IMG/VR virus record: IMGVR_UViG_3300033121_001571
Source: a virus
Lineage: Duplodnaviria > Caudoviricetes
Direction: 5' to 3' (one strand)
DNA: 64,000 bases
The notes beneath the pieces were generated by a model that was given only the letters and a program-made list of their open reading frames with translations, had not been told where the DNA came from and made no database searches. Position numbers and translations under genes: made by a program. This document shows, one piece after another, positions 39,717 to 58,253 of the stretch; the stretch's first letter is position 1; the number at the start of each line of letters is the position of its first letter.

Positions 39717-39902
39717 CTAACTCTTCTTGCTGTAAAGATCTCTGTGCCAACCTTCACCCTTGAGTAAAAAACTAGTTCCTCCAGAGATGAGTCTTTTCAG
39801 TTTTTGACCACATTTTTCACAATATCGATCAGAATCATCACTTATGTTGTGTTCTATCTCTGTGACCGTCTGACAACTCTTACACTCGTACTCGTAGATC
39901 AC
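39717..39902 (-). CDS. FmdB-family zinc-ribbon protein
   Basis: IYEYECKSC...CEKCG..LKRLIS...F.LKGEGW. Confidence 0.85.
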   Translation of the reverse strand: MIYEYECKSCQTVTEIEHNISDDSDRYCEKCGQKLKRLISGGTSFLLKGEGWHRDLYSKKS

Positions 39903-40942
39903 TCGTTTACCTCTTTTAACTTCCACGTCGTGGTGGAGCACCCAAAATTGTTTCTCTCGACCTCTGCGAGGTGCAGATTGTATAGATTCACGTTTGATTT
40001 ATCTGAGAATCCCCACACGCTAAGTCGAACTGGTTTCGCGCCGAGACCGAGTGCAGATATGACAGCATAACTCTTTTTGTTCTTTGTCATTTTGATCTCT
40101 AAAGACGTGGGAACAAACCAAACAATGTTCTTGTCACCTTCTTCAAGGGTCTCAATCGGATTGATCTCTTTTGTCTCTAGCTTAGCTAACATCTGTGGGC
40201 TGACAACAGATGTCACGTCAAAACTTCCAAATAACTCGATCTGAAACTGTGCTTGTTCTACTTTTGTCCACTCTGGAACGTTATCTCTGTAATATTCAGC
40301 TAACTCTCTCATTCTCTCCACACCAGCATACGGATTCTTTTTTGGCGATTTCTTTATCTCGTCGTTGTGTTCAATCAACACCTTGAATGCTTGGTGCCAA
40401 TTGCTGAATAATTTTCCTTGGCCCACCGCATCAAGAGAACCCAAAGCTTTTATCTTGATCAGAGTCTCTAAGACTCTTTTATTGAACTTTGAGTGTCTCC
40501 ACGTGCCGTCAGAGTTGTACAGCATGTCTTCTATATTTTTGTACGGTCTGTTCTGCAAGATCTCTTGCACAGCCGCTTCGCCGATACTCTTACAAGAGTA
40601 AAATGACGGCATGAACTTTTTCCCTGGAAGCACTGTCCATTCGTCTGAAGCATAGTTGACATCAATCTGAGCTATGTCGTAGCCCAATTGTTTGATCTCT
40701 GAAAATGCTACTGCTTTCTTTTCAGGACTGTTTAACATAGACTCAACATACGCAGTCAACCACTCCTTTTCAAAGTACGTCATCAACCACGCACACCAGT
40801 AACTGTCGATCGCATAAGCAACTGCGTGACTGTTTGAAGTCAGAACACCATTTGCTAAATAGAACTGGTGATCTGGGTGATCAACTTCAAGATCATACGT
40901 TTGGTGTTTTCCGATGGGGGTTATTGATTTGATGTTACTCAT
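39899..40942 (-). CDS. dnaE: DnaE fragment 5: IntC3 (40832-40942, 37 aa, ends Ser-Asn) plus C-terminal extein
   Basis: MSNIKSI...TYDLEV..PDHQFYLANGVLTSN|SHAVAYA; completes the conserved YGFNK-SHA motif. Confidence 0.95.
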   Translation of the reverse strand: MSNIKSITPIGKHQTYDLEVDHPDHQFYLANGVLTSNSHAVAYAIDSYWCAWLMTYFEKEWLTAYVESMLNSPEKKAVAFSEIKQLGYDIAQIDVNYASDEWTVLPGKKFMPSFYSCKSIGEAAVQEILQNRPYKNIEDMLYNSDGTWRHSKFNKRVLETLIKIKALGSLDAVGQGKLFSNWHQAFKVLIEHNDEIKKSPKKNPYAGVERMRELAEYYRDNVPEWTKVEQAQFQIELFGSFDVTSVVSPQMLAKLETKEINPIETLEEGDKNIVWFVPTSLEIKMTKNKKSYAVISALGLGAKPVRLSVWGFSDKSNVNLYNLHLAEVERNNFGCSTTTWKLKEVNE

Positions 40943-40944
40943 CT

Positions 40945-41280
40945 TTACCTATCACAGCTGGCAATTTTGACAGGCATATTTGCTTCAAGCCACAGTGCTG
41001 CCTCAATCGCGAACTCATCTTTTTCATCGCAGCACGCAACTACTTCACAGTATGAACCAAAATCGTGTGGAAACCACTTTATCTTTAACTGCATAGATGC
41101 ATCTCTGTGCTGTCTATTTTTCTGCAAGTGTTCCCACAGTTGGTCTCGCCAAATTCGGCACTGTGATAACATCTTTGTTTTGTTGTCAGGATCAGAACTA
41201 TCTAACTGAATTGCTTCTTCACTCGGAGAACAACAACCTAGTTCTATCTGAAACATGTGAAATAACCATACTGCAGCCAC
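40945..41280 (-). CDS. Hypothetical phage protein
   Basis: IELG..P.EE..Q, FPHDFGSYCEV motif; passenger in the dnaE locus. Confidence 0.65.
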   Translation of the reverse strand: MAAVWLFHMFQIELGCCSPSEEAIQLDSSDPDNKTKMLSQCRIWRDQLWEHLQKNRQHRDASMQLKIKWFPHDFGSYCEVVACCDEKDEFAIEAALWLEANMPVKIASCDR

Positions 41281-41303
41281 AGAAACAGTTACACTGCAAC
41301 GTG

Positions 41304-42305
41304 TTAATCTCTATAAGAATTTTTACTTTGAGCTCTTTTTGCTGCATCATTAGCAGCTTCTTCCGCTAACTTAGTGCCCCACTCTTCTTGGATACTGTCT
41401 CCAAGAACTTGCCCTTCATCAGTAAGGAAAATAAAATCACCTTCTCTGTAAACAAGACCAGAGTCAATAGCCTTTATCATCATATTGGTAAAATCCAAAA
41501 ATGCATTATGTTTAATTGTTTCGTGTTTTTCAATTTCTCTTACTTGAAGATATAGTTCTTCTTCATTATCAACGCCGTTAACGGACATCAGATATGGTAT
41601 GATCTTTTCATAGCGACTTTGTAAGTTAAGAACTTCTTCCATTGTCTGTGCAATTAAACGACCTTCATCATTTAAATCATAAATAGTGTGTTTTCCTTTT
41701 CTACCAACTGGCTCTATGTATGGTTCAAGAAATCCATACCATAATTCAGTATCACGCATCTTAAAACCAAAATGATGAAATCCATTAAATTCTTTTTCTT
41801 TTTTATACACTTCAGGTAGAGTCATGGGTCCAAATTGACTAATTATGTATAAAGGTATTTGTTCTATACTAGAATGTGTATTTACAGTCTTGGGTGTTGG
41901 CGGTTTGTTAGTTCCAATTTTTCTGATGCTAGCAAGATCGATCAGATGTCCCTTAGCAGACATACGTTCTGTTCTAAGAAATTTTTCATAATCACGCTGG
42001 TTACAACTAATATTGTTTACAATCTGCCACATAATTGAATGGTTTTTACTTTGATCTATGACTTTAACAAACTGCATTTCAACTTTACCAAACAATGTCG
42101 ATCTAGTGTTGTGTATATCTACATTCTGAATGGAGTATATAAAATCTTGCTCTATGATAAATGGCCCTTTGTTTGCATATTCTGGTGTATTTACAATGAC
42201 AACATCATAATTTTTGATGTCAGACAACGATTTATAAGATGTCTCTTGCGATTTTTCAAACGCTTCTGAGATTAGCTTCCTGATCTGACCAATTGTAGTG
42301 ATCAT
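41304..42305 (-). CDS. Leader-motif protein, paralogue A1, with tandem winged-helix-like repeats
   Basis: MITTIGQIRKLISE; shares PVG.K..YDLN and LTDEGQVLGD..QE.WG with 42312. Confidence 0.75.
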   Translation of the reverse strand: MITTIGQIRKLISEAFEKSQETSYKSLSDIKNYDVVIVNTPEYANKGPFIIEQDFIYSIQNVDIHNTRSTLFGKVEMQFVKVIDQSKNHSIMWQIVNNISCNQRDYEKFLRTERMSAKGHLIDLASIRKIGTNKPPTPKTVNTHSSIEQIPLYIISQFGPMTLPEVYKKEKEFNGFHHFGFKMRDTELWYGFLEPYIEPVGRKGKHTIYDLNDEGRLIAQTMEEVLNLQSRYEKIIPYLMSVNGVDNEEELYLQVREIEKHETIKHNAFLDFTNMMIKAIDSGLVYREGDFIFLTDEGQVLGDSIQEEWGTKLAEEAANDAAKRAQSKNSYRD

Positions 42306-42311
42306 TTGTTG

Positions 42312-43307
42312 TTAAATACCCTTTGCTGTCTGTGCTAGAACGTATCCCCACAACTCCTGCGCTTTATCTCCAAGAACTTGTCCTTCATCAGTCAAGTGAT
42401 AGACTTCATCTTCATCTTCATATATGAGACCAGATTTTATAGCTTTACTGATAGCTTTGTTTAGAGACACTATGTTGAATTTTCTAAATGCAATAAATCT
42501 AGCTTGAGTATCTAATAGATCAACTTTCATTGGACCGTTGACAGACAACAAGTAAGGAATTATCAATGAAGCTCTCTCTTCAACAGACAGAGCGGTAGAG
42601 ATTGAGTTATTAGAATTTATTGGTGAAGAGTTCAGATCGTAAACAACTTCTCCGTCTTTTTTACCAACTGGTTGAAGAACATCAGTAACATACTGAAGAT
42701 TTTCATGTCGATCACCAAACCACACGTCAATAAATCCTTCATCATAAGCAGAATACTTGCCTTCAAATTCTTGAACTTTTTCCATGATCTCTCTTGCAGT
42801 CATAGGTCCATTTTGTTTGACAACATACGATATAATGTCCAACATATGACCATCAAAACTTAACTTTTGTGTTCTTGTCTCTTGGTTTCCAACCTTGATC
42901 ACATCTGATATGTCAAAAAAAGCGGACACAGTTTCTGACTCTGACGAAAACAGATCATCATACAACTCTCCAGCGCTAACGTTTTCACAAACATAACAGC
43001 GTCTGATCCTACCATTTTTGATGTTTTTTATCTGCAGCGTAAAACACTTAACTACAGGTTGTTTGCGTTGTGACTTGTTTTTGAAAACAAAATAAGAAGG
43101 TTGGTCGCCATCAGTTTCTATGTCAAGAAACACTTTACGTGATGTGTTGACAACAAACACATCATCTTTGTCAATATTGAGTCTTGTTTGTTTGAACTTG
43201 ATAAGATCTCCGTTCTTAATGTCAAACACAGATCTGTATGTTGTTTCACTCTGGTTACTCAAAGCCTCAGAAATCAATTTTCTTAATTGACCAAGAGAAG
43301 TTATCAC
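42312..43307 (-). CDS. Leader-motif protein, paralogue A2
   Basis: MITSLGQLRKLISE; ACTATTTA box 5 nt upstream. Confidence 0.75.
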   Translation of the reverse strand: MITSLGQLRKLISEALSNQSETTYRSVFDIKNGDLIKFKQTRLNIDKDDVFVVNTSRKVFLDIETDGDQPSYFVFKNKSQRKQPVVKCFTLQIKNIKNGRIRRCYVCENVSAGELYDDLFSSESETVSAFFDISDVIKVGNQETRTQKLSFDGHMLDIISYVVKQNGPMTAREIMEKVQEFEGKYSAYDEGFIDVWFGDRHENLQYVTDVLQPVGKKDGEVVYDLNSSPINSNNSISTALSVEERASLIIPYLLSVNGPMKVDLLDTQARFIAFRKFNIVSLNKAISKAIKSGLIYEDEDEVYHLTDEGQVLGDKAQELWGYVLAQTAKGI

Positions 43308-43338
43308 TGGACTAAATAGTCACTGAACCAGTGTCAGA

Positions 43339-43635
43339 TCACAGTATTTCTCCCCAATCACAGTCTTCATCAGGATCAACACCAATCTCATCCCACGAAG
43401 CCCACGTTGTTCCGTCGTGCATCACTTCATTCAAGTGCGTTGGTTGCAAGTTCTTCTGAAGTGCTAGATCAAATGGAATGTGAACAATCACCGTCTTGTC
43501 GGTGTCACTCATCCTCGTGACAAAACACTTTGGGATCCACACGGTGTCTTTCTTAGACACAGATATCTTGACAGCACGCTCAGATTCACGCACCAAAGTT
43601 CCCTTGAACTCGTGAAAACTGTCACTTCTTCTCAT
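43339..43635 (-). CDS. Hypothetical protein
   Basis: RESERAV..VWIPK motif; passenger in the dnaE locus. Confidence 0.65.
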   Translation of the reverse strand: MRRSDSFHEFKGTLVRESERAVKISVSKKDTVWIPKCFVTRMSDTDKTVIVHIPFDLALQKNLQPTHLNEVMHDGTTWASWDEIGVDPDEDCDWGEIL

Positions 43636-43849
43636 CAGTGCCTATCGCTTCGATCACAAGCTGTTGTATCTTTAGAGAACGTTCTGAGTCGATTCCAAAG
43701 ATCTTCTCAGTTTCTTTCAAAGAAGCAGGTTTATTGATAACAACTTTCACACAGTTCTTAATATGTCTTGCTAAACTATCAACTTTGCTAAAACACTTGT
43801 GACACCTGTTGCACTCGAAACTGCTTGACACAACTGACTTCTTTCTCAC
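43622..43849 (-). CDS. Small C2HC/C2H2-type zinc-finger protein
   Basis: FECNRCHKCFSKVDSLARHIKNC. Confidence 0.65.
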   Translation of the reverse strand: MRKKSVVSSSFECNRCHKCFSKVDSLARHIKNCVKVVINKPASLKETEKIFGIDSERSLKIQQLVIEAIGTDEKK

Positions 43850-44607
43850 GTAGTTTTGATCACACTCTCTCTTGGTTTCATAAGATTGTAGAGAACTTGT
43901 TCTACGTGTTTGAACAAATCCCTGTCAAATCCACACTCTCCTTGAAAGACTCTCAACGCAGAATCAATGTTTAAAGCACGGTGAGTCTTCGGTTGCAAAC
44001 TTCGAAAACGGATGATGCTGTTCAGACAGTGCCTTGCTAAGTCTGGATCATGGGACCTTTCAATCTCTCTGCAGGCACGTTGTGCAAAAAACTCTATCTG
44101 TTGATTGTGTTCAGGTAAAAAACTCATATTTTTGCACCTTGTGATACAGTTCAACGCTTCTTCTCGCACCACTTCTACGTCTGAAGCGAGCGCGCTCACA
44201 AAAAACTCTCCAACAGCTACTTCAAAAAACGGAAGAACATCGATAAACGGATCTAGATTTCCGCAACACATGACATTTAATTGAACACCGTAATCAATTG
44301 GTGTGGGAGACGCAAACAAGAACAAAAAACTATTTTGATCAACTTTAACGTATTGATACATTGTAAACGCTAGATACGACAGCAAACCTATGTCTTTCCA
44401 ACCTGTTTTCACTAAGTGACTAAAGATAACGTAAGGCCACTCATCAAGTCTACGATTTTTACCAACAAAACACTTTAGTGCTTCTGTTGATCTGTTCTGA
44501 TTTGAAAGGTGCTCTGACCACTCTTTGCAGAGCTTATTGTATGTTTTTTCGCTGAAGATCATTGTTGAGTTAAGCAGAGATCTAAGTTGTCTGAAGACAT
44601 ACACCAA
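43846..44607 (-). CDS. Hypothetical protein
   Basis: Long ORF; no recognised motif. Confidence 0.6.
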   Translation of the reverse strand: MVYVFRQLRSLLNSTMIFSEKTYNKLCKEWSEHLSNQNRSTEALKCFVGKNRRLDEWPYVIFSHLVKTGWKDIGLLSYLAFTMYQYVKVDQNSFLFLFASPTPIDYGVQLNVMCCGNLDPFIDVLPFFEVAVGEFFVSALASDVEVVREEALNCITRCKNMSFLPEHNQQIEFFAQRACREIERSHDPDLARHCLNSIIRFRSLQPKTHRALNIDSALRVFQGECGFDRDLFKHVEQVLYNLMKPRESVIKTT

Positions 44608-45701
44608 TCACTACAATAGTTATTTCCTTCACCACACGCAATAAAAGTACCTGGAATGACTTTTGAACAGTATGAATTTCCTAACTTAAACACACCAGGA
44701 CTTGGATTTTTCAAAATCTTGAACAGATTGTATATTACACGATCACTGAACTTACCTCCTTCTTTGTATGAGAATTGATCGTATGATATACGAATAAGGG
44801 TCCATCCGTGTTGCACTATGTGTTCATCAAGCAATCGATCCATATTCCTAACATCATTAAAAACTTTTTCTCCTTTTATGCGAGGTTCAAAATGAATTAT
44901 ACCATCAAATTCAACATAAATACGTGCTGTTTTATCAGCAATATCAACTTGTTTTCGATGTGATTTATTTGTAAATACACTTGATTTAACAATCTGATTA
45001 TGTTTGAATTCATAAGGACTAGCGGTTAACAACAACTCAAATAACATTAACTCTGGTTTACTGTGCCATTTAGAATGTGCGGCGAGGGTGCATTTTTCAT
45101 AGAACTCATCAAAATGAGTATTACGCCAAGCTGTCAGACGTGCTGTTCGAATTGCAAGGATCTCTGGTCGAGCTGACGTTTTTTTTGCAGTGATGCGTGA
45201 TAGTTCGCGGCCCCTTGGAGACGAATTTCTTGATGCCATAGCTTCAGCTCGGCGTTTACGTTCATTTGGATTCGCCATAACAGCAGTAGAAACTGCAACA
45301 CTCATCTTAGCCTTATATGCAGTCAAATCGTCGCCACGTTCTTTTGCACGCTTCAACCATGCAAAATTCTGACCACGTTTCTTAAACGCAAGCTGTGTAG
45401 TAAGCGAAGTGAGCTCAGCGTCTGGATATGTAGTTATGTACTCCTTCTTGCTCATGTCATGGACTTGTGTCAAGTGTTTTGTAAGAGTACGACCTATAAA
45501 TCCGCAAATTCGACAAGTAACTGTGTCGTTGGCTGAAAGAACAGTTACTAGACACGCTTTTACGTGTTTTTCGTAGGGTCGCTGGTAAGAAAAGTTCTTA
45601 CCGCATCGGTCACAACGATATTGTATCCCTTTTCGTTGATCATCCACAATGGTAGCATCTCTCCCGTTTCCTTCGTCCTGAATTTGTGATTCCACGTGCA
45701 C
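44559..45701 (-). mobile_element. Free-standing Zn-finger Vsr/DUF559-like homing endonuclease (HEN3), after IntN3
   Basis: CDRC..H..C and CRIC..H..H fingers; SKPE..VDIA..IYVEFDG..H..D..GWTLIRI. Confidence 0.85.
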
Positions 45702-46282
45702 TTTACCTTTTCTCCAGTAGTGAGCTCTACTTCAACTAAGTCGAGAACACCGTGATCATGTTTCATGATCACGGGAATAATAATGTCATTTCCTGAAATC
45801 TCGTCTCTAGATCTGACTAGATCATTAGGGCAAACATCTTTTAACAACTTAGTCTCTCTGTAAGAGCCATCAAAATTATATATATTCAGAGGTTGTAAAA
45901 AGTACAAACTTTTATTGAAACCGTACCCAGCGAAATATAAGATCTTATCGTAAAGGTTGTTAGCAACATCAGCAGTGTAACCGTTCTTTATGCATCCTTG
46001 AACAAAGCTATCTCGCGTTTCTTGTGCAGCCTTCTTCGCCGCTTCACCGCCCGAGATGCTGCGCTTCATGATGGCGCGGCGAACCTCGTCACACTTGTCC
46101 TTCGGGAAGCCGGCCACCTTCTCGGCCAGTTCCATCACCTGCTCCTGAAAAATTATACAGTTGTGCACCAGAAGGCCATTTGCGAAGAAATTGTGGTTCT
46201 TCTTGACCTGGATGTCGTACACGGGCTGTGCAGGAGCACGCTTGATTGCACGGATCTTGATGGGAACTACATCAGGCATCAT
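45560..46282 (-). CDS. dnaE: DnaE fragment 4: IntC2 (46160-46282), 83-aa extein, IntN3 (45563-45910, starts Ser)
   Basis: VYDIQV..NHNFFANGLLVHN|CIIFQEQ...YGFNK|SLYF...VKCTWNHKF. Confidence 0.93.
   Translation of the reverse strand: MMPDVVPIKIRAIKRAPAQPVYDIQVKKNHNFFANGLLVHNCIIFQEQVMELAEKVAGFPKDKCDEVRRAIMKRSISGGEAAKKAAQETRDSFVQGCIKNGYTADVANNLYDKILYFAGYGFNKSLYFLQPLNIYNFDGSYRETKLLKDVCPNDLVRSRDEISGNDIIIPVIMKHDHGVLDLVEVELTTGEKVKCTWNHKFRTKETGEMLPLWMINEKGYNIVVTDAVRTFLTSDPTKNT
45999..46030. repeat. 32-bp direct repeat, copy 1
   Basis: tgaacaaagctatctcgcgtttcttgtgcagc, identical at 47429-47460. Confidence 0.95.
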
Positions 46283-47428
46283 CCACCTCGACAATATCGA
46301 ACTCATCGAAGCAACACACTTCTTGGTCGAGCTCGCCGCCTTTCAAACCCTCGAAAAGACCCGAACCCGTGCTACGATTGTAGAACATCGCATCATTGTT
46401 ACGATAATCGTCAATGAGTTTGACTTCAGTCCCAGCGTCGAACCATTCATCGGGACGAGAGATGTATTTGACACGCTTAACTGGTTGGAGAGGTGTAGAT
46501 GAAAAGAAGCCTTCCGCCCCATCACGCATCATCTTGACGTGGACAATTCTCTCGTTAAGATGATCTGCTTGCAGGCGTTCACCTTCGTCAACTAGCCTGA
46601 TCACATTGGGACATGCAGTCGTCTTCTCTACCCATAGTGGGTCAAGAGGCGACGGATGGTGTGGACACGCACGCCAGTCGTGTTGACGTTGACGCTCGAG
46701 CAGGCAAAACACACCCGTCAAGTGCGTGTAACAAACAACGTAATCCCTCATCATTCACACTCCTGTTCGCGATGCATTAAGCACGCAGCACATATATCGC
46801 GGCCAGGTGTTGACGTCCAAAATTGCTCGTGGCAATCAACACACGTTTGCGTTGGGCTGATGGACAACTTCGTTGCTACGCCGTGTGATGACATAGAACG
46901 AGACAACGCATCAGCGTCCAGCACAACGCGACGTGGGTTGATTTTCATTGCCAACGAACTTGCACATAGTTGACACACCGGTCCATGGACGTCCAACACA
47001 CGAGGACCATGATACTCAAGTTCCATATCGTTGCCCACTTCTTCATGGGCTCGAAACGTATCGAACCAATCGGCATAGGTGAGGTCCTCACGCTTAGCCA
47101 CTTCAGGATGTGACTTCAAGGTATTGATGAAATTCTTGAACGAGGTGAGCAGCTCTTCCTCGAAATCTTCGATCTTCATGCCTAAATTGTCCTCAAGTTG
47201 TGTGGGTAGTTCACAGCCTCAGACCCCCAGACGCGTCTCACCACATAACCTCGAGCCTCAGCCGCGCGGGTGAATGATTCATCGAGTCGATACTGTCGCT
47301 TCATCTTGGACGTCAGTTCGTGCTTTTCTGGATTGCCGTGCCAGTAGTCGCCATCGAACTCTACGAGAATGTTCTCATTTGGAACGTAGAAATCGAACTC
47401 ATGGTTGATGCCTTCAACGTGGCATCTG
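46031..47428. mobile_element. GC-rich foreign insertion (about 1.4 kb) from a related phage's dnaE locus
   Basis: Bounded by the 32-bp repeats; 46081-46140 is 36/60 G+C versus 23/60 for the largely synonymous native segment 47521-47580. Confidence 0.75.
46272..47179 (-). CDS. Two hypothetical ORFs within the GC-rich insert (46272-46754, 46751-47179)
   Basis: Coupled ORFs; Cys-rich C-terminus in 46751. Confidence 0.6.
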
Positions 47429-47712
47429 TGAACAAAGCTATCTCGCGTTTCTTGTGCAGCTTTCTTTGCAGCCTCGCCGCCAGAGATGCTTCGTTTCATG
47501 ATAGCTCTGCGAACTTCGTCACACTTATCTTTTGGAAAACCCGCAACTTTTTCTGCGAGTTCCATTACGCTTTCTTGAAATATCAAACAATTATGAACTA
47601 AAATAGAATTTGCAAAAAAATTACCATTCTTCTTGATTTGAAGATCGTAAACGGGTTGTGAAGGAACACGTTTGACCGCACGGATTTTGACGGGAACTAC
47701 GTTAGACATCAC
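47182..47712 (-). CDS. Chimeric ORF: IntC2' (47590-47712), about 53 aa of DnaE extein, then the C-terminal part of a Vsr-like endonuclease
   Basis: VYDLQI..NFFANSILVHN|CLIFQES...ETRDSFV then FDFYVP..ILVEFDGDYWHG..D..GYVVRRVW. Confidence 0.85.
   Translation of the reverse strand: MMSNVVPVKIRAVKRVPSQPVYDLQIKKNGNFFANSILVHNCLIFQESVMELAEKVAGFPKDKCDEVRRAIMKRSISGGEAAKKAAQETRDSFVHRCHVEGINHEFDFYVPNENILVEFDGDYWHGNPEKHELTSKMKRQYRLDESFTRAAEARGYVVRRVWGSEAVNYPHNLRTI
47429..47460. repeat. 32-bp direct repeat, copy 2
   Basis: Identical to 45999-46030. Confidence 0.95.
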
Positions 47713-47997
47713 TTGCCTTGTTGATCTGAAACTTTGATCTGAAACTCTTCGACGTTTGACTCATCTGCGCTATCTTCAACACAAAGCACTCGAAGATAAC
47801 GAATTGCACACGCTAAGAACTGTTCAGGAACCAAATTTGGTGTTTCGTGTTTTGGTACTATCTCTCTTGGAGAAAAAGTCTCTTCCACAGAGTCACACCA
47901 ATGTAAGATACCAGTTAGAGTGTTTGTTTTTACCATAAACACAAAACTACTGCACAGATACTTTCTGTTCACTTAAGTTTTAAGATCTAAACAGAGA

Positions 47998-48525
47998 TCA
48001 CAGATCAATAATGATATATTTGTCATTTCTTTTCATGACATTATCGCTAGATATGTCCCCACGCATTTTCACATAGATTCTCAAAAAATCTTTGAGATCA
48101 GAATCGGGCAGAGACTCTACGCTTTCTGGGTTGCTAACAACTTCATCTATGATGAATTTTTCATCTCTTGTCAGTTGATCTAACTTTTCCATCACAGCAT
48201 ACACTGCATAAACAATGTTATCACCCACTTCTTCATCATATCCTTTTAACTTGCCCACTTCAAAAATTTTCACAAATAGTTCAAAATCAGGAATAGACTT
48301 TAGTTTATTCAAATGATAATCAACGCCATCGCTGTCTGGAAACATCTCATATGTTGGCACAAGTTTTATCACTTTTCCTGCTGAATATTCCATGATAACT
48401 CCTTCGTTACCAAACGCAACCACGTTTCCAACGTTTGGAGGGAGGATTCCGTCTCTTTTAAGTTTAGGAATGATTGTTTCAATAAAGTATGAATCGTAAA
48501 AACCTTGGTTTCTTTTTGTAAACAT
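47998..48525 (-). CDS. Minimal protein-kinase-like protein
   Basis: FGNEG, VIKL, YAVMEKL, GDISSDNVM, IIDL. Confidence 0.7.
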   Translation of the reverse strand: MFTKRNQGFYDSYFIETIIPKLKRDGILPPNVGNVVAFGNEGVIMEYSAGKVIKLVPTYEMFPDSDGVDYHLNKLKSIPDFELFVKIFEVGKLKGYDEEVGDNIVYAVYAVMEKLDQLTRDEKFIIDEVVSNPESVESLPDSDLKDFLRIYVKMRGDISSDNVMKRNDKYIIIDL

Positions 48526-49432: not shown

Positions 49433-50074
49433 TTCATCACTGTCTGTCAAAGACCCAGCGTTTACCCACCCACGGTTCTTTGTCATGACTAAGTGGTCTT
49501 CAGTGACAGTGAGTCGTTTTCCGTCCTCTAACTCTATCTCGATCACGTCTCTTACACCGTTCGACACAGCAGCTACAACCACGTCACTCTCTATTTCAGC
49601 AGATTCCTCGTTGTATGACGGGAGAGTGACGCCGACCATCTGCTTATCAACGATTTCCTTGATAGTGATCTCACCGTTGTCTGTCATCACTCTTGAGTCA
49701 CCAGTTAAGCAACTGTAAGTCTTCTCAAGAATCTTATTGATTCTATCGTCACCCCAGTCCATCTGCTTGTTGTTATTCTTAGCGTCAATATACAACTTGT
49801 CTACGTCAGCAGCAAGTGGGCCAGGACGATAGATCGAAGTCAGAGTCGCAATGTCAATGATGTTCTCTGGTTTTGCTTTGACAAACAGGCGCTGAGCGCC
49901 CTTGCCAGTGACTTGAAATATGCCAGCAAACTTTGCTTCTTCATAGACCTTATAGACTTCTGGATCTTCCAGATCCATCTTTGATGGATGCATGTGTTCG
50001 CTGTGCCACTCTTTGATCTCATCAAAAGAGATCTTATCATTTGCAACGTTGTTGACTGACTTTACTTTTGCCAC
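49397..50074 (-). CDS. dnaE: DnaE fragment 3: vestigial IntC strand, extein, IntN2 (49400-49711)
   Basis: AGIFQ, SIYRPGP, KTYS|CLTGDSRV...TVTEDH. Confidence 0.93.
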   Translation of the reverse strand: MAKVKSVNNVANDKISFDEIKEWHSEHMHPSKMDLEDPEVYKVYEEAKFAGIFQVTGKGAQRLFVKAKPENIIDIATLTSIYRPGPLAADVDKLYIDAKNNNKQMDWGDDRINKILEKTYSCLTGDSRVMTDNGEITIKEIVDKQMVGVTLPSYNEESAEIESDVVVAAVSNGVRDVIEIELEDGKRLTVTEDHLVMTKNRGWVNAGSLTDSDEVLIFSDCENQT

Positions 50075-50109: not shown

Positions 50110-50997
50110 TTAGCCTTGAATATGAGCTTCAATCACAATGACTTTTCCTCTGATAGCATCTTCAAAATCTTTTCTTGCAGTTGAGACAAGATCACTTATC
50201 TTTGCTAAGAGACTATCGATCTCTTGATCACCAGTCTTGTTGTAATGAAATCCTCGAGTGTCAAGAATAGCTTGCGTAAGAATTTCAGCTGCAATATCAT
50301 ACAACGAACGACCCTTAAACTTATAAACTCTAGCTGATTTCATCGTCAGTGAAGAAATAACACCTGGAAGCAGGTGGTTAAAATACCTTTCTTGTTTCTT
50401 GCTCTTAATTTGACCGTCAAAATCTTCGCCTTCTAAAAATAGATAAACGATCTCACTTACATACTTTCCCATGACAGACGACTCTGTCGATTCATCGATC
50501 ATAGCGTGGATGATCATCCAGGGCGTAGAAAGAAATCCTTTCTCAAGATTCTCAACTAGTGGAACAAAGATCGCTGCGCCTTGTTTTCTTGCTTCTTCTA
50601 AAGCTACGATCTTTTCTGGAGGTACACCAAACCCAGCTAAAATACTAGCATCTTCACTTCTTTCATAAGTTCTCTTAATGCGTCCTCTATCATCAAATTT
50701 AGATCCTCGTCCTGCAGCAAACCATGTAAATGCTGGCACTACGTAGATTGGAACCGACAGGTTCTTATACAACTTAATCGCGCTGCTACGAAAATTTTCA
50801 TTGTTAAAGAATTTTTTGACTTCTTCTCTATCTTTTTGAACAGTTGGCACATCATAATTTTTGAATCGAGCAATAGTCTTAGAGTCCATACCTTTAGTCC
50901 AATCTTCTTCTCCAGCTGGCTCAATTCCAGCTAAAGGAGCTTCTGAGATCACTGAAGATCTGATAAGAGATCGGAGTTCGCTAAGTTTGATTTTCAC
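50110..50997 (-). CDS. Leader-motif protein, paralogue B2
   Basis: Same N- and C-termini as 48529. Confidence 0.8.
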   Translation of the reverse strand: MKIKLSELRSLIRSSVISEAPLAGIEPAGEEDWTKGMDSKTIARFKNYDVPTVQKDREEVKKFFNNENFRSSAIKLYKNLSVPIYVVPAFTWFAAGRGSKFDDRGRIKRTYERSEDASILAGFGVPPEKIVALEEARKQGAAIFVPLVENLEKGFLSTPWMIIHAMIDESTESSVMGKYVSEIVYLFLEGEDFDGQIKSKKQERYFNHLLPGVISSLTMKSARVYKFKGRSLYDIAAEILTQAILDTRGFHYNKTGDQEIDSLLAKISDLVSTARKDFEDAIRGKVIVIEAHIQG

Positions 50998-51016
50998 AAT
51001 CACTAAATATCAACAC
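50896..51016. repeat. 121-bp exact direct repeat, copy 2
   Basis: Identical to 49312-49432. Confidence 0.9.
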
Positions 51017-51040
51017 CAGCTTACAACGCGTACGCGTCGG

Positions 51041-53040
51041 TCACCAGTAACATGTACAGAACAAAGTGTTAACTCCTTCAATGTCTTTTTTTGAAAAAGA
51101 GTTATGGTGTAAAAAACTAACGAGTATATTTTTCTCTATGTCAAACACAAATTTCAATGTACTTTTTATTGGGTATGCAAAAAGGTTCGGAAATTTAGAA
51201 TTAAGTTCTCCCACGTACAAACCGAATATCTTTTCATTTTTGTCTAATAAAAGAGGTCTGTTGAAATTTGTTCTATGATAATAGACTCTTCCACAAGGAA
51301 GCACTCGAACAAGATTTCCAACTAAAAACTCATTTTTCATTTAGGAACTTTAAGTTTTCTTAGTAGAGTTATGGTGTGTTACGTAACAACTCATACAACA
51401 ACAATGAAGTGCGCTATAACATAGTTCATCACTGCACTGTATAAAATCAGATGTCACAAATTTGACAAGTTTTTTACTTAACAGATCAAACAAAATAACA
51501 CTAACAAAATTCACTGGTCTGTTAAACTTATAACTGTTTATATCTTTTCTGTGAAGATCTGTCACTGAGATCAAATAACCATCAAGATCTTGGTGATCAA
51601 GACTTGTGTCTTCTTCCTCTTTACAGATAGCGTTAACAGCACCGTGAGCAATTATTTTCACAACGGTGTTTTCTAAGCTCTTAGTTAGTATCATCTTCAT
51701 CTAAACACTTGTACTAGTGAGTGCTTTAAAATGAGATCAAAGAATTCACTAATGCTTTCGTTTCTTATCGAAGTGTTTTACAACACAACTTTTGCAGTAA
51801 CAAGTCCATTTCGATTGATCGCTAATAAAGTTTATGATAGAACCAGACGTTCTAAAGATAACAACTGATTTAACACAGACATCAAACATTGTAACTCTCA
51901 CAAAAAACTTGTGTGGATGGTTTGCAAATCTGTTACGATTAGGTAGATCAGACACTGAAATCACATAACCATAACAAATAGTTATGTTCTCTAAACTCTC
52001 ATTTTGTGTCTTTCTAAGAACTCTGACTCTACCATGTGGGTGAACTCTTATGAGAGTGTTAATTGTAGATGTAATGTTCTTAATCATTTTTAACGTTTTT
52101 CAAAACTAACGCTAATAAAAGATCTTACAACAAACGTTTGTGTACAGATCTATGCAATAAGAACAGCCACACCCAACAATGTTTTTATTGTTGTTGTGTG
52201 CATATCTCATAGCACTGATCAACTGAAATTCAATTAACAAATTTTCACTCAGATCAAAAATAGTGATCGCTGACTTTGTTTTAGACAGAGAACAAATTGA
52301 AACAACGATACCAAAAAATATCTGTCCACGAGGGAAAATTGACTTCTCACGAGAAACACCTTTTGAAATAAAGCCAGTTTCTCCAAAACAATGAGGAGCA
52401 AAAAATTTGAGATCACCAACTTGAGTCATTGACTACCTTTAAGGTATTGGCAAAACGCTTTTACAACTCAAACAAGTACACCTTAAAACATTGTTCACAG
52501 AAACAAGTTCACTCGGCGTAGAAAACTTCATAACGTTCATGTTCATAAATGAAAACATCGTGATCTTGTCTTGCGTTCGAGAAAGAACAAGACCAACGTG
52601 AATGAACGTTGGATTGTGTAAGTACAACGAATACCAAAGAGATAGATCGTGGGGTATTATCTGAATAATCTGTCCCACAGCAAAAACGTGTCCAAGCACT
52701 TTGGCGCTCAATGATTTGTGTGCCTCTACTAAATACTCATACACTCGAAACACTCACACTTAATCACGCTTAACACGTTATCATAAAGTGATTGTTCAGT
52801 TATCGAAAACTGCACTAACTTACCTAATTTGATGTCTAAAAAAACAACAAGTACCATACCCTCAGACTTCCACTCAGTGTTCAAAACAATACCAATTAAA
52901 GCTGAATAAGGATGAAGAGTAAATGTTTTAAACGTTTTTTCTCCAATGATATCAATCTCACTGTCGTGAGGATGAACTTTGATCACTTTAGCAATAATTC
53001 TATTTTTCACAATTTTCTCACATAGACAACGTTTTTGCAA
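51041..53040 (-). CDS. Tandem array of six divergent ~100-116 aa paralogues (PH...FD...CxCxxC)
   Basis: ORFs 51041, 51350, 51749, 52112, 52439, 52729 share V.PH(G/D), G.V.S, FD....LV.F and C-terminal CxC(xxC). Confidence 0.7.
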
Positions 53041-54827
53041 CCATAGATCTTAAATAACTTGTGTTCAAATGCTAGACTCTCTTGAGAAGCTATGTTTGGA
53101 ATAGAACGCACAAGAAAACGATCAAGTCTGTGGTGACAATCTGTCCACCAAAATCTCGGTTTTGTCTCGTGACTCACAACAAAACCTGAACTCAAATAAC
53201 CGTTACCAGAACCACCCAAACGTGTATCACGATATGTCATGATTCTGTCAAAAGAGTTTTCTTTAGCCCAAGTTGCGGCAGCGCTGATCAGTTTTGACAT
53301 TCCTCCCACAACTACCGTGTTCTTCAAAAAAGCAACTCTAGCAATCTCTAGAGTCTTATCACTCCATTTTTTGATCTGGTGTGGCTTTCTAACAGTCAGT
53401 GTTGCTACAGTCTCGCCATTTTCTGTCTCAAGAATAAATCCTTTTGAAGCTGGCACGTTACCATCGATGTGATTTTCAACAAGAAATTCCGCAACAGATG
53501 CTGGATGAACTGCACGTACTCTGAGCCTTCGAGCAAAGATCTTCTTTGCTTTTTGCAGTTTGACTCTGATCATGCTCTTGATGATCTCTCGCTTGGTGAG
53601 ATCTTGCCATTCGTCTTCAAACACATGTAACAAAGAAGTGTTTGTTGTAGAGGCTAGATCTGACTTTTTCTGGTGATACTCACTGTCTGATATCACAGCA
53701 TCAGAGTGCCAGTATAATCCATTACACTCAATCGCAAATCTCTGATCACTTGACAGTATGTCTAGCTCTAACGGAGCTATTCGTTTTCGATCATTAAGCG
53801 TTGCTCCCGGATCGAACGTCAAGACGTATTCATAGATCTCACTCTGCCACCTTGAAATGACACGTGGATTGCAAGTTGAACACAGCTTTCCCTTACATAG
53901 AGATGACAGTTTTACTTGACAAGTCTCTCCGCACTCTTTACAAGAGACAACAATAAGACTTTGAAATCCAGCAACTTCATATGAATCAACATTCCATTTA
54001 TCTTTCACCGATTCAAGTCTCTCAGCGATCATCTCATGAGTGATTCTAAACGGTGAATTCACTCCCAACTCTATGAGTCTTTTTCTTGTCTGAATTATCT
54101 GTTGTTTGACTCTGTCAGCACAAGCTTTGTGTACCCAGTGACTGGATTTGACACTCTCACTGAGGTTTTCAGAACGTCTCTTTATTCTATCATCAGTCTC
54201 AGACGTTTGTCCGTGTTGAGTCCAGTGCTTTTCTTTCTTCCATTTTTCTGTGAGTGTCTTAGATATCTGAACAGCCGCTTGAGCTACTGAAGCACTGTTT
54301 TCTTTCGTCTGCCCAGAGCGCCAGTGACCGTTCTTTTTTATGAAATCTCTGCACTTTGTTGCAGCGATTCTCACAGACTCGCTCGTCTGTTCTGTCAGAC
54401 CCTTGTTCCAAGCTGGAGTGTTATTTCGTTTTCTAGTTTCGGCTCCACGAAGCTGAGAGTTTTTCTTGCTACACTTTCCGCAGAGCCTCTCATAACCAGA
54501 CTGAAATGACAAGAACTTGACAGGCCCAAAACACTGAGTGCACGGTCCTGGGTGAGAGACAAACAACAAATAAGCATCTTCAGCTAAGACACTGTGAACT
54601 TTTGCTAAGTGAGCTCGAACACTGTTAAGACTTGCTTTCATCTGTTGAGAGCAGATCGGACACTTCGAAAGAAGTGATATCGTCGGAGGGCCTGAGGTCC
54701 CTCGCGAAAACTTTTCCTCTTGCGGTGATAACTTCTTGGTCTCCAAACATTCTTTTTGTTGATCCGTCTTCAAGACAGATCTCAATCCATCCTCGTCGTT
54801 GTCTTTCATCTTTGATGATGAGTTCAA
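53007..54827 (-). mobile_element. Large Zn-finger Vsr/DUF559-like homing endonuclease (HEN2) with GNAT-like C-terminal domain; true start uncertain
   Basis: CPIC..H..H finger, PAWNKGLT repeats, ELDI...AIECNGLYWHS, LLHVFEDEW, IFARRL. Confidence 0.85.
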
Positions 54828-55512
54828 TTGTTCTCTCTACCAGTCTAAGCGTTTCAAGGCCAAGCAGATCATATTTAATGAAATTTCCGATCGCCTCTAG
54901 ATGTTTATAATTTACTCCCTCTACCCAAGGACTCTGAGGTTCCCCTTTTGATGTGATAAGAGGCATCTTATCAGGAAGATCGTCAGCTATTAGCACTCCA
55001 CCCGCGTGACGACCCAAAGAACGACCCTGTTTGAACAAGACATTCATAGACTCACCCACTTCAGGGTGCTTGTCAATGAAGTCTTTGAAAGGCTTATCGT
55101 ACTTCAGAGCATCTTCATACGTGAGAACAAACAAGTTCTTGTCATCACCGTGCTTTGTTGTTGCTTTTCTGACGCTTTGTTCAACTGTCTTCGTGGCAGC
55201 ATTGACTTCTTCGAACGGTATGCCATAGAACTTGCTGAGATCTTTTAGAAGAGATTTGACTTTAAATGCGTTGACATTTGAGATCGGAACAACGTTTTCA
55301 TATCCAAAGAAATTTCTCAGCTGATCAAGCACGAGATCTCTGTTAGCAAGATCAGAATCGATATCGGGAGACCCAGAGTTATGCGTTAAAACCCAATTGG
55401 TGTTGTCTTGTGATATCCAAAATGTATGATTATTCTCAACTTCTATATCAATAAGACGTGTACTTTCTTCAACTATTTGAATCGATTCTATCTTAGCTGT
55501 GTTTGTTAACAA
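54625..55512 (-). CDS. dnaE: DnaE fragment 2 (catalytic palm): IntC1 (55378-55512), extein, vestigial IntN half (about 54628-54786)
   Basis: WVLTHN|SGSPDIDSD, GRHAGG, KYDLLGL. Confidence 0.95.
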   Translation of the reverse strand: MLTNTAKIESIQIVEESTRLIDIEVENNHTFWISQDNTNWVLTHNSGSPDIDSDLANRDLVLDQLRNFFGYENVVPISNVNAFKVKSLLKDLSKFYGIPFEEVNAATKTVEQSVRKATTKHGDDKNLFVLTYEDALKYDKPFKDFIDKHPEVGESMNVLFKQGRSLGRHAGGVLIADDLPDKMPLITSKGEPQSPWVEGVNYKHLEAIGNFIKYDLLGLETLRLVERTIELIIKDERQRRGWIEICLEDGSTKRMFGDQEVITARGKVFARDLRPSDDITSFEVSDLLSTDESKS

Positions 55513-56482
55513 GACTTTCCTTATGTTTAGAAATTAAATGTTTTGTATTCTTGTAATTACGGTTTTCTAAATTTGGAATTACCTTATAAAGACCTTCATT
55601 ACGTAATGAAGCATAAAAATCTTCCATATAGATAACATCTATAATAATTCCTTGTGCAATTAACAAATTGCGTATTTTCATATTAGAATTTAACAATTTT
55701 GAAAACAGTGAATCACTTTCTCTAACACCTTTTAATTCAATATAACGATTTTCATTGGGAAAGAAAAAATCAGGCGTATAACAAACATCCCTACCTTCAC
55801 TTGTTACATGAAAAGTTTTGCTTTCATAAAGCGGTACATTTGATTTATAGATACAATATCGATAAAAATCTGCCTCAAATGAACTTTTGAAATAAGGACT
55901 ATTCTCAATATCTAAACGCCATCCAGATCTACCATTTATATGGATTGCTATCATTCCTTTTGATTGAGCTTCAAAAGTACATTTTTTACTACAAAATCTC
56001 ATTTTATAACTCTGCTTAGTAGATTTTACTAAGCCACATACTTGGCACACACATTTTATTTTGTTTTCTTTACTCTTTTGCGTACATTTAGCACTACAAT
56101 ACTTTCTTTTTTGATTTTTTGATTCAAAAATCACATTACAATAATTACACGTCATTTGAACAATTGGATTCTTAGTTAGAGTCTTAGAAGTTTCTATTTT
56201 AGAACACGCTCTAGAACAAAATTTTCGCCCCAATTTAGATTGGGGCACAAAGTATTCTTTGTTACATAACAGACAATTTTTCATAAACCGACCTACAATA
56301 AAATTTCTAACGCTAGAGCGCTTTTGTTTGTTTTTAACTTGACACTCAGTAGAACAGTACATTCTAGCTAACTTGCTAGTTGAACCTTTACCCACGCCAG
56401 AGCACTCAATTTGAAATATTTTTTCACAATATTTACAAGTTTTCTTTACTATGATCATAGTGGTACGTATACAACAGATCAT
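55493..56482 (-). mobile_element. Multi-treble-clef Zn-finger PD-(D/E)XK homing endonuclease (HEN1) between IntN1 and IntC1
   Basis: Four CxxC..(F/Y)CS..C repeats; KSSFEA..YTPDFF..YIELKG; AT-rich (55621-55680 is 16/60 G+C). Confidence 0.87.
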
Positions 56483-58253
56483 CAGTTGTCAATTCATGTG
56501 TTCGTTTCTTTATGAATTTTCCATCCCCAGCACAAACTAACCACTCATGATTTTCAGAACACTTAAATGTCGTACCATTTACCTTAATAAGGTACGTTTT
56601 TGTAACATGTTGCACAGTTTTATATGTTACTCTTTGTAAAGAACCGTCTTGTGTCAAGACTTTATCTCCAACTTTAATTTCATCAAGAGACGTAGTTTTA
56701 TTTTTTTCTAAAAGAACACGAGTATTTGGTTCTAAACACCTATGAACAGAGAGAAATCTGCTAAACGGTAGGTCCCACTTGATTGGATCTAAGTCTGTGA
56801 TCTCTAAAACATAGTTAACAAGTGAACCCGCACCAGAGCCTCTACCAGGACCAACTAGAGTGACGCTTCTAGCAAGTTCCATGATCTTCTGATAAGAGAT
56901 GAAATAATCTGAGTTTTTCATCTGCTTGATGACAGACAACTCTTCTTTAAGTCTCTCTACGTACTCTTCTTTCTCTGCAAGGCCCTTCTTGATCATGCCT
57001 TCTTTGCACAGTTTACACAAGTGACTGAAAGACGAAGAGTCTTCTGGGACAAGTCTTTTGACAGGGAACTTTGGCGTCCTATCAGGTTCAACAACGCCAA
57101 TCACTTGGTGAGCAATGTCGTGTGTTCTCTCAATCGCTGCAGCGATAACTTCGTCATCATAGAACGAAGTGCCCTCTTTAGAACGCAAGTACTCATCCCA
57201 CATCTGAGAAGCGTTCTTTGGATACAATTCACACTTCAAATCATCTTTAGACTTCGGAAGAGAGTCAGGTGAGTATGTCTTGTAGTTCATAAACCCAAGC
57301 TTCTTGTATAACTCTCTTTCTTTCCAGACGTTTGGATTATAGTAGTGAGCATCACCAGTGACCACAAGTTGATCTGTGACACCGTTTCTCTTGGCAAATT
57401 CTAGTATTGATCTGTTTATCAGATTCTGAGCAAGAATTCTGTTAAATTGCAGTTCAAGATAACAGTTGCCCTTTCCAACAATATCTGTCATCAGATCATA
57501 GAAGTTTCCAACTGCTGTAACACACTTCTCCATAAGAGACGGATCGTCCAACAACGACTGGTCCATAGAATCAAACTTGATCTTCTGAAGTTCTTGAAAC
57601 ACGTTATAACTTGGAAGTCCACCCAAGCAAGCAGAGGTGACAATGATGTCACCATCTTTTGCAGCCTCACGAAGGATGCGAGAATCAATTCTGGGGAACC
57701 TATAAAAACCCTTTAAGTAGCCTAAAGCTACTGCCTGAAACATTTTCTGGAGCCCACGTGATGACTTTGGCAGTACCACCAGGTGATGGCGGCGGTTGAT
57801 TGGGTTGAAGTGCTTTGTCGTCTTTGTCTCTTCTTCATCTTCAATAGTCAAAGCATTTGAAACTTCAATGTCTTCAGTCTCATCATTTTGATCAACAACA
57901 GCAATGAGCTTCGTCTGAAGCTCTTCTTGTTTTTTCAGCAGTTTTGCTGCTGTTTTTTTCTCTGTTGCCGCTAGATCGTGTTCCTCTTTGTCTCTCTGCC
58001 ACTGTTGTAGATCAGGGTGAAAATATGCTTCTACGCCTGGGATATACTTGAAGTTTTCCCCCGCCGATTTCCACTTTTCAACAAATAATTGAGCGTGAGC
58101 ATAAGAGTTGCAGTGACCGTGCTCAGTGATTGCGTGTGCGTCTAGACCGTTTTCTTTGCAAAACTTGAAGTGTTCGTCTGGGTATCCCAAACCATCAAAT
58201 GCAGAAAACCCTGTGTGGGCGTGAAGTCCAACGAATTTCTTGGGAAATGGCAC
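56433..58253 (-). CDS. dnaE: DnaE fragment 1 (PHP domain) plus IntN1 (56436-56738); start revised to GTG 58253
   Basis: LHAHT.FS.FDG, AITEHG, GVEAY, DAHY, GPGRGSGAGSL, FSRFLSVHR|CLEPNT...CSENH. Confidence 0.96.
   Translation of the reverse strand: MPFPKKFVGLHAHTGFSAFDGLGYPDEHFKFCKENGLDAHAITEHGHCNSYAHAQLFVEKWKSAGENFKYIPGVEAYFHPDLQQWQRDKEEHDLAATEKKTAAKLLKKQEELQTKLIAVVDQNDETEDIEVSNALTIEDEEETKTTKHFNPINRRHHLVVLPKSSRGLQKMFQAVALGYLKGFYRFPRIDSRILREAAKDGDIIVTSACLGGLPSYNVFQELQKIKFDSMDQSLLDDPSLMEKCVTAVGNFYDLMTDIVGKGNCYLELQFNRILAQNLINRSILEFAKRNGVTDQLVVTGDAHYYNPNVWKERELYKKLGFMNYKTYSPDSLPKSKDDLKCELYPKNASQMWDEYLRSKEGTSFYDDEVIAAAIERTHDIAHQVIGVVEPDRTPKFPVKRLVPEDSSSFSHLCKLCKEGMIKKGLAEKEEYVERLKEELSVIKQMKNSDYFISYQKIMELARSVTLVGPGRGSGAGSLVNYVLEITDLDPIKWDLPFSRFLSVHRCLEPNTRVLLEKNKTTSLDEIKVGDKVLTQDGSLQRVTYKTVQHVTKTYLIKVNGTTFKCSENHEWLVCAGDGKFIKKRTHELTTDDLLYTYHYDHSKENL

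Follow-up and report, generated by a model that had tools for sequence, protein, structure and literature searches.

We analysed a 64-kb stretch (64,000 nucleotides, the window below) of an uncultured large phage, IMG/VR record IMGVR_UViG_3300033121_001571, in which dnaE, the gene for the replicative DNA polymerase, lies in pieces. Nearly all genes between 39899 and 58307 are on the minus strand. A first-pass annotation of this DNA had read five of them as carrying the DnaE motifs in the correct order and as being reassembled into one polymerase by three pairs of split inteins. For comparison, relatives were collected in IMG/VR scans, which gave 97 loci (a few duplicate one contig), 85 of which cover the whole dnaE. 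The five open reading frames (ORFs), F1 to F5 in the order of the protein, are:

56433-58307, minus strand: F1, with Pfam PHP and positions 2-103 of DNA_pol3_alpha
54625-55512, minus strand: F2, with Pfam DNA_pol3_alpha positions 101-260
49397-50074, minus strand: F3, with Pfam finger positions 9-116
45560-46306, minus strand: F4, with Pfam finger positions 113-166
39899-40942, minus strand: F5, with Pfam HHH_6

All five ORFs exist and are open, and their Pfam domains follow the order PHP, palm, fingers and HhH of a C-family DNA polymerase (DnaE or Pol III alpha), in agreement with the motif order first proposed; the PDB matches of the pieces are the Pol III alpha proteins of Taq and E. coli. 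On the one-gene reference L004, an intact dnaE of 1180 amino acids (aa), F1 to F5 cover residues 2-482, 476-669, 670-790, 783-866 and 866-1178, respectively.

Directly upstream of the F1 frame, a terminator-like hairpin occupies 58308-58335 of the window on the minus strand (GGCAGGAACT...AGTTCCTGCC, then T's). Because this hairpin sits just upstream of the TTG at 58307, the true start of F1 is likely the GTG at 58253, and the hairpin suggests that F1 begins its own transcript, using this GTG.

The polymerase parts of the five ORFs, the exteins E1 to E5, were delimited as follows:

56739-58307, minus strand: E1 of F1, PHP domain and palm start, ending ...FLSVHR (Pfam PHP 1.8e-20, DNA_pol3_alpha 1e-26)
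54805-55377, minus strand: E2, 191 aa aligning to intact relatives, palm, aligning with Taq Pol III alpha 460-655 including PDIDTD
49712-50044, minus strand: E3, 121 aa less the first 10 of F3, fingers, ending ...EKTYS (Pfam DNA_pol3_finger 7.3e-24)
45911-46159, minus strand: E4, 83 aa, from CIIFQEQVM to GYGFNK (Pfam finger 113-166)
39902-40831, minus strand: E5, 310 aa, SHAVAYA, HhH domain and C-terminal domain, aligning with Taq Pol III alpha 814-949 and L004 866-1178

When the exteins were joined in silico and aligned with ten one-gene relatives and L001, the closest relative of the window (69% identity in E1), there was zero gap against the one-gene relatives at junctions 1, 3 and 4, which read SVHR/SGSPDID, KTYS/CIIFQEQ and GFNK/SHAVAYA (a slash marks the junction throughout). 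Removal of the inteins restores uninterrupted host sequence at these three junctions; in intact relatives E3 abuts E2 and E4, and E4 abuts E3 and E5. E1 is 40-71% identical to residues 1-523 of the dnaE of relatives. The catalytic motifs PDIDSD and GRHAGGV are retained in the pieces, and SGSPDIDSD aligns with SMPDIDTD of Taq, so that the catalytic palm aspartates PDxDxD are kept, with PDIDSD beginning only four residues past junction 1. The exteins are colinear and complete, the layout is of the "fractured gene" type that the first-pass annotation had invoked, and its fragment of only 83 aa of polymerase in F4 is found as described. Five pieces, however, have four junctions, and the one between F2 and F3 (junction 2) had been left without an explanation.

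Junctions 1, 3 and 4 carry the following intein halves (IntN, N-terminal; IntC, C-terminal):

56436-56738, minus strand: IntN1, 101 aa, Cys1 (CLEPNTRV), block B CSENH
55378-55512, minus strand: IntC1, 45 aa, block F DIEVENNHTF, block G VLTHN, +1 Ser
49400-49711, minus strand: IntN2, 104 aa, Cys1 (CLTGDSRV), block B TVTEDH
46160-46306, minus strand: IntC2, 49 aa, block F VKKNHNFFANG, block G LLVHN, +1 Cys
45563-45910, minus strand: IntN3, 116 aa, Ser1 (SLYF), block B CTWNH
40832-40942, minus strand: IntC3, 37 aa, block F TYDLEVDHPDHQFY (PDHQFY), ending VLTSN, +1 Ser

The splice-site strings quoted earlier, SVHR/CLEP with THN/SGSPDID, KTYS/CLTG with VHN/CIIFQEQ, and GFNK/SLYF with TSN/SHAV, are all present, and the three pairs proposed at these junctions have intact splice-site residues: the Cys1 or Ser1, the block-B His, the block-F His, the terminal Asn and the +1 residue (Ser, Cys and Ser, respectively) are in place and are kept by the orthologues that occupy these sites. 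The partner halves lie up to ~4.6 kb apart, as first reported, the largest distance being that from IntN3 to IntC3 (45560 to 40942). Among the intein models run, IntN2 scored 58.6 bits on TIGR01445 (intein_Nterm; cut-off 24.5), IntC2 scored 47.2 bits on Pfam Intein_splicing (gathering cut-off 35.8) and 38.7 on TIGR01443, and IntC3 scored 21.7 bits on TIGR01443 (cut-off 15.6). IntC1 reached 13.1 bits on the latter model, slightly below the same cut-off, and its orthologues keep ...VLTHN/[ST]. A profile of five IntN1 orthologues matches the gp41-1 intein (6riz_A, E-value 6.5e-8), and a profile of six IntN3 orthologues matches the Npu and Ssp DnaE inteins (7qil_A, 4e-12; 4qfq_A and 2keq_A; E-values ranging to 1e-7).

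The same sites are occupied in other phages. IntN1 has orthologues at its dnaE site in L003, L017, L022, L030, L034, L043 and L056-L062, and IntN2 in L034, L043, L051, L066, L086 and L094, while the Ser1 of IntN3 is kept in L003, L005, L017, L020, L034 and L049. IntC2 is 92% identical to the IntC2 of L034 (IMGVR_UViG_3300015608_001846), and the IntC3 sequences of L005, L017, L020 and L034 are 65-86% identical to that of the window. From these features we assign junctions 1, 3 and 4 to canonical split inteins of HINT class 1. The three inteins are mutually ~30-46% identical over their alignable parts and represent different lineages, and the charge polarity of the N-part and C-part is opposite between pair 1 (+1/-5) and pair 2 (-14/+5); because of both properties, orthogonality of the three pairs is plausible. 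Splicing at junction 3 is predicted to yield the junction-spanning tryptic peptide TYSCIIFQEQVMELAEK.

Junction 2 differs from the other three. Compared with the one-gene relatives, the alignment leaves 59 extra residues at the C-terminus of F2 and 10 at the N-terminus of F3:

54628-54804, minus strand: junction-2 tail of F2, 59 aa, starting KDERQRRGWIEICLEDGS..., missing from one-gene relatives
50045-50074, minus strand: first 10 aa of F3, MAKVKSVNNV, missing from one-gene relatives and resembling the first beta-strand of a C-intein

A conserved form of the tail occurs in 11 contigs, and the break with a homologous tail is shared with L001, L002, L030, L034, L036, L038, L043, L044, L047 and L048. 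In an hhalign comparison, the profile of the 11 tails aligned with the IntN profile with a probability of 94% and an E-value of 1e-7 over IntN columns 54-93, the C-terminal, block-B half, and the tail of L043 directly matches IntN2 residues 46-95 with 46% identity. The TxxH of block B is replaced by FGDQ in the tail. The apparent Cys1 of the window (CLEDGS) at the start of the tail is unconserved, the corresponding residues being FLLADGE in L001, LEFNDGT in L002 and IELSGE in L034. On the downstream side, the start M-x-K-I-[TK]-S-[IVL] recurs in L036, L038, L044 and L048 and looks, by visual comparison only, like the first C-intein strand, for example that of IntC3 (MSNIKSITPIGK). Splice nucleophiles, blocks A, F and G and a terminal Asn were looked for at junction 2 in the alignment and by hhalign and were not found, and NCBIfam models gave no match on the tail. 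By profile and alignment, the junction-2 tail is thus best assigned to what is left of the C-terminal half of an N-intein after loss of the block-B TxxH, and is no longer an intein; with its splice nucleophiles and blocks A, F and G gone, junction 2 cannot splice. The break at junction 2 is older than the other three and non-splicing. We also considered a three-piece or atypical split intein at this junction and rejected it, since the extein-attached parts correspond to the middle of the Hint fold and there is no conserved nucleophile.

Tentatively, and with somewhat less than even confidence, we suggest that the remnant is a domesticated docking module, in which two facing strands of a former split intein, with the catalytic parts gone, hold the polymerase chains together. 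The alternative that tail and strand are inert, decaying scars, and that the chains associate only via the ordinary DnaE palm-fingers interface, is less likely than not. The two remnants keep their length, hydrophobic pattern and DG and DD[DI] motifs in 11 contigs despite differing genes in the gap, whose occupant among relatives is X606-like (X606 being the gap-2 endonuclease gene of the window), GIY-YIG-like or none, and the retained parts correspond to the facing strands of a split intein. The tail does evolve fast, with 24% identity to L034 and, against closer relatives, a ratio of non-synonymous to synonymous divergence (pN/pS) of ~0.5, as a scar would; its pN (~0.40) is still below its pS (~0.8).

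Complex prediction of the tail with E3 gave an ipSAE of 0.47 (median of three runs), with the best control at 0.00, agreement of the runs in at least 74% of the contacts and a partner pLDDT of at least 69. Of the 80 solved complexes used for calibration, 58 reached the ipSAE mark, as did 2 of 110 mismatched pairs; at 0.60 or under it was reached by only 7 of the 80 solved complexes and by both passing mismatches; these counts hold only roughly because analysis-specific alignments were used. The model thus lends weak support to docking of the tail on E3, and the weakness of this prediction is a point in favour of the scar. According to Crona et al. 2011 (PMC3045599), NrdA of Aeh1 is split by mobE without splicing, and the C- and N-terminal tails at the break, created at the mobE insertion, were proposed as interaction domains and are essential for activity; the same paper describes the tails as unnecessary for heterodimer formation, which would suit an inert scar. 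In both cases a mobile endonuclease has split an essential enzyme at a break that does not splice and that bears tails absent from intact homologues; the cases differ in that the tails of the window are recognisably derived from a split intein and the gap occupant varies between relatives.

We consider the following explanation of the whole locus probable. Selfish elements would have broken dnaE four times, three of the breaks being fractured-gene sites with an IntN upstream and the matching IntC downstream, and the cargo genes in the gaps would be later acquisitions. After translation, IntN1 and IntC1 would ligate F1 to F2, and IntN2/IntC2 together with IntN3/IntC3 would ligate F3, F4 and F5. 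The mature enzyme would then consist of two chains, E1-E2-tail (~773 aa) and E3-E4-E5 (~514 aa), associating non-covalently, possibly with the intein remnant as a clasp. Two chains rather than the single one first proposed are expected because junction 2 cannot splice and three ligations cannot join five chains into one. In L001, dnaE is broken only at junction 2 and consists of two genes, E1+E2+tail of 775 aa and E3+E4+E5 of 510 aa, with a homologous tail that lacks a Cys at junction 2; the two-chain product, the most likely outcome, matches this natural two-gene state, and its chains would associate non-covalently as the two L001 products must. What the sequences show directly is colinear exteins, seamless joins at junctions 1, 3 and 4, conservation at the splice sites, homology for every intein and for the tail, and purifying selection; splicing activity, orthogonality, two-chain assembly and a role as the working replicase of the phage are inferred.

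Several points weigh against this explanation. IntN1, IntN3 and IntC1 fall under the curated single-sequence Pfam and NCBIfam cut-offs and were identified only via profiles and conserved position, so that the intein models first suggested as a check succeed for IntN2, IntC2 and IntC3 alone. The penultimate residue of intein 3 is Ser, not His, and its halves show no charge complementarity (-3/-2). The junction-2 tail is only moderately constrained, as its pN/pS indicates, and its predicted docking is weakly supported, as noted above. A second copy of IntC2, IntC2', in a sixth dnaE-derived ORF (described below) could compete for IntN2, giving a dead-end E3-E4'-nuclease product. Finally, the search for another dnaE covered the 64-kb window.

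This last point bears on the possibility that the gene is dead, its pieces being relics, and that replication is carried out by the host polymerase or by one encoded elsewhere in the genome, for which it could also be said that the sixth dnaE-derived ORF is clearly a by-product. We regard this as very unlikely. The five ORFs are open with their catalytic motifs, and the window holds no further dnaE-like sequence except one partial duplicate (47182-47712). Against L034, synonymous sites are saturated (pS 0.73-0.96), while protein identity is 50-90% for the exteins, 55-86% for the inteins and 50-54% for the endonucleases; in this comparison, and against L001, exteins and inteins behave as sequences under strong purifying selection. 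At that distance, all four breaks recur in L034, along with a fifth. It is extremely unlikely that the products form a single polymerase chain, in which junction 2 would be bridged by an atypical or unrecognised intein or was overlooked: although the tail begins with CLEDGS, which looks like intein block A, and is homologous to Hint, its Cys is unconserved in L001, L002 and L034, hhalign places it on the block-B half of IntN rather than on block A with TxxH changed to FGDQ, NCBIfam models find nothing in it, and F3 offers just 10 extra residues with no block F or G and no pair of terminal Asn and nucleophile.

The broken state was then set against the relatives. Among the 85 full-length loci, dnaE is unbroken in 55 and broken in 30, with one break in 23, two in 3, three in 3 and five in 1 (L034), at eight sites in all. 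The four breaks of the window are thus second to the five of L034, and the description "unusually extreme" in the first-pass annotation holds only in a relative sense. In L034 (L034:5539-16971), dnaE is in six pieces with four split inteins and an intein-less junction 2. It has the same four breaks as the window, with orthologous inteins and endonucleases, and differs by a fifth break, a split intein at E1 residue 490 (GRG/SGGGS) with a 33-aa extein between its IntC and IntN1, by a GIY-YIG-like gene at junction 2, by a Vsr-like endonuclease of full length (276 aa) at junction 3 and by the lack of an IntC2 duplicate. Further split-intein sites in dnaE occur at L042:10571-12059 (E3 residue ~55), L022:13291-14926 (E2 ~121) and L023:8559-10015 (E1 ~228). 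The inteins in L042, L022 and L023 are IntN2/IntC2-like and accompanied by Vsr-like endonucleases, so that a single intein family seems to have spread to several positions within one gene. In L001, which has no intein at junction 3, the +1 Cys is kept (TYT/CIIFQEQ; L001:9060, window 46159), whereas distant intact relatives have His or Phe, and its E4 is 93% identical to that of the window; this may be a sign that L001 once lost an intein at junction 3 or that its extein was co-converted. Outside this group, a megablast of the 18-kb dnaE region against GenBank phages gave no match, and the DnaE proteins of cultured phages are only 22-33% identical to that of the window.

Fractured genes of environmental phages, in which a split intein breaks the gene and a free-standing endonuclease lies between the halves on one strand, were described by Dassa et al. 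2009 (PMC2677866), who reported three dnaE loci at three integration points, one with part of a second intein, from short metagenome contigs, as well as Vsr-like endonucleases in fractured genes and an intein-less fracture (SbcD-like) with 25 and 9 extra residues at the break. The window resembles these in that junctions 1 and 4 hold the free-standing endonuclease genes HE1 and X380, respectively, and junction 3 a truncated Vsr-like core within the sixth dnaE-derived ORF (F4dup); X380, X606 and the F4dup core resemble their Vsr-like endonucleases, and the endonuclease type of HE1 is not named in the text of that paper. It differs in combining three different split inteins and one non-splicing break in a single gene with full genomic context, and in the up to 3.6 kb of extra cargo in its gaps. 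The five-piece dnaE is an extreme but not unique form of this known layout.

Individual inteins also have known counterparts. The halves of the cyanobacterial DnaE intein lie at separate loci, with a single split, and its site is before CFNK, four residues upstream of junction 4. This intein (Ssp/Npu DnaE; Wu, Hu & Liu 1998, cited in PMC2677866) shares the host protein with intein 3, and junction 4 falls within the same GYGFNKSH motif; intein 3 differs in using Ser1 and Ser+1 and in its penultimate Ser. Among solved inteins, gp41-1 (PDB 6riz/6qaz) matches the IntN1 family best and, by the polarity given in PMC2677866, has a non-acidic N-part and an acidic C-part, like pair 1 (+1/-5). It sits in another host gene at another insertion site with low identity, and the endonuclease associated with pair 1 of the window is of the T7-endo-I type.

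Around junction 3, the window contains two further features, the first being the sixth dnaE-derived ORF, which was absent from the first-pass annotation:

47182-47712, minus strand: F4dup, a chimera of IntC2', E4' residues 1-54 and, fused in frame, the C-terminal ~80 aa of a Vsr-like endonuclease
45999-47460, minus strand: GC-rich island, holding the endonuclease C-part, o142, o160, IntC2 and E4 codons 1-54

F4dup matches Pfam Intein_splicing and finger, phrog_559/3339 on residues 97-168, and TIGR01443 with 29.9 bits. Its IntC2' is AT-rich, shares 71% identity with IntC2 and has Gly in place of the block-F His (KKNGNFF). Over the shared extein stretch, F4dup and F4 are ~94% identical in protein (with a 46-residue identical run) and only 77% in DNA, the third positions of the F4 copy being GC-rich and those of the F4dup copy AT-rich. 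The island, a cassette of 1.4 kb, lies between two exact copies of a 32-nt direct repeat (45999-46030 and 47429-47460), has a GC content at third codon positions of 0.52-0.67 against 0.32-0.45 in the flanks, and is 76-99% identical to L034, compared with ~65-70% for the remaining dnaE. L034 has the same order, with the full 276-aa Vsr-like endonuclease, o142, o160 and IntC2-E4. In the simplest reading, an L034-like segment recombined into E4, bringing a new IntC2 and E4 start, while the native IntC2'-E4' remained as a stub joined to a truncated endonuclease.

The layout, or at least the island with the duplicated IntC2-E4', might instead have arisen by misassembly of two phages occurring together. 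This would account for a stretch of foreign composition flanked by an exact 32-nt repeat where assemblers can switch, and for Logan contigs ending at these repeats, and is nevertheless extremely improbable, as F4dup is fused in frame, five further runs again contain F3 and F5 together with the cargo upstream of F5, and the Logan contig L104, from an independent run, is 100% identical over 47460-46001, including the left junction of the island, across the repeat-to-endonuclease junction. A k-mer chimera was rejected on the same ground: an independent run contains this junction, and L034-like donors, whose endonuclease has its own N-terminal domain, lack it. F5 (together with the cargo upstream of it), F3 and o142 are matched exactly in Logan assemblies from six different sequencing runs, and because these runs are independent, the layout is not a one-off assembly artefact. 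Exact-protein look-ups of F4dup (with two start choices) and of F4 returned no record, probably because short Logan contigs end at the 32-nt repeat.

Each gap holds one endonuclease-family gene or domain on the same strand, truncated at junction 3, besides cargo genes. The "many unrelated genes" first reported between the halves therefore hold for the cargo ORFans and not for the one endonuclease-family gene or domain in each gap. The gap genes are:

55493-56482, minus strand: HE1, gap 1, multiple Cys4 zinc ribbons and a C-terminal PD-(D/E)xK core (YTPDF...YIELKG); phrog_1271 "HNH endonuclease" 7.9e-16
53007-54827, minus strand: X606, gap 2, Vsr-like core; phrog_3339 "homing endonuclease" 5.4e-57, phrog_559 5.8e-51
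44559-45701, minus strand: X380, gap 4, C2H2/Ros-type zinc fingers and Vsr-like core (YVEFDGIIHF); Pfam ROS_MUCR 4.9e-6, phrog_559 6.1e-8
50110-53040, minus strand: gap-2 cargo, six tandem ~100-aa genes with C-terminal CxCxxC (51041-53040) and the ORFan o297 (50110-51003)
47709-49419, minus strand: gap-3 cargo ORFans o296 (a paralogue of o297), o175 and o87
40945-44607, minus strand: gap-4 cargo ORFans o253, o75, o98, the paralogues o331 and o333, and o111

A profile of nine HE1 homologues matches T7 endonuclease I (1m0d_A, E-value 8.4e-4) across the YTPDF/VE.K motif, and an HE1 orthologue lies between IntN1 and IntC1 in L003, L017, L030, L034 and L043. HE1 homologues occur elsewhere in L007, L009, L010, L012-L014, L020 and L023, the HE1-type gene being found in the gaps of fractured dnaE and also by itself, 5-7 kb upstream of an intact dnaE. 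X380 has orthologues between IntN3 and IntC3 in L005, L017, L020, L034, L042 and L049, and shares the Vsr-like core of phrog_559 with the C-terminus of the ORF at 47182-47712. An X606 homologue directly follows the N-half in L002; the true start of X606 is uncertain because homology begins only at ~aa 55. Its C-terminus is Mom-like, with an acyltransferase fold (Pfam Mom 1.8e-3, phrog_1384 8.5e-9), an odd partner for a Vsr-like core.

The gap cargo genes gave no family match against Pfam and PHROG. An N-terminal motif, x-L-R-x-L-I-[SR]-[ES], is common to the first ~20 residues of o333, o331, o296, o297 and a DnaJ-like ORF (58355-59161), at window positions 42284, 43286, 49392, 50976 and 59131 on the minus strand, so that the motif-bearing ORFans lie in or beside the dnaE gaps. 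At their 5' ends, o296 and o297 are 100% identical over 121 nt. The motif and the shared 5' stretch could represent a common leader or a recombination handle. A tRNA scan within the window found none.

If the three inteins splice, this polymerase would be assembled from five gene products by tandem protein trans-splicing; a literature search of incomplete coverage found engineered schemes only for tandem trans-splicing with several split inteins in one protein. Three co-evolved split inteins of different lineages, one of them a Ser1/Ser+1 relative of the fast cyanobacterial DnaE intein, would then have to act in one cell without cross-ligation. The relatives form a comparative series of 55 intact and 30 broken genes with eight sites, including the two-gene, "already spliced" control L001 and the six-piece L034, which shows repeated homing-endonuclease fracture of one essential gene followed by gaps filling with cargo, and how a split intein may lose splicing and persist as a remnant. 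In the GC-rich cassette, horizontal transfer has replaced an intein half together with part of its extein, and the event is a dated one. If the remnant at junction 2 is a docking module, the enzyme would be built by three orthogonal trans-splicings and one intein-derived non-covalent clasp, and a split intein would here have evolved naturally into a protein-protein adaptor and nothing else.

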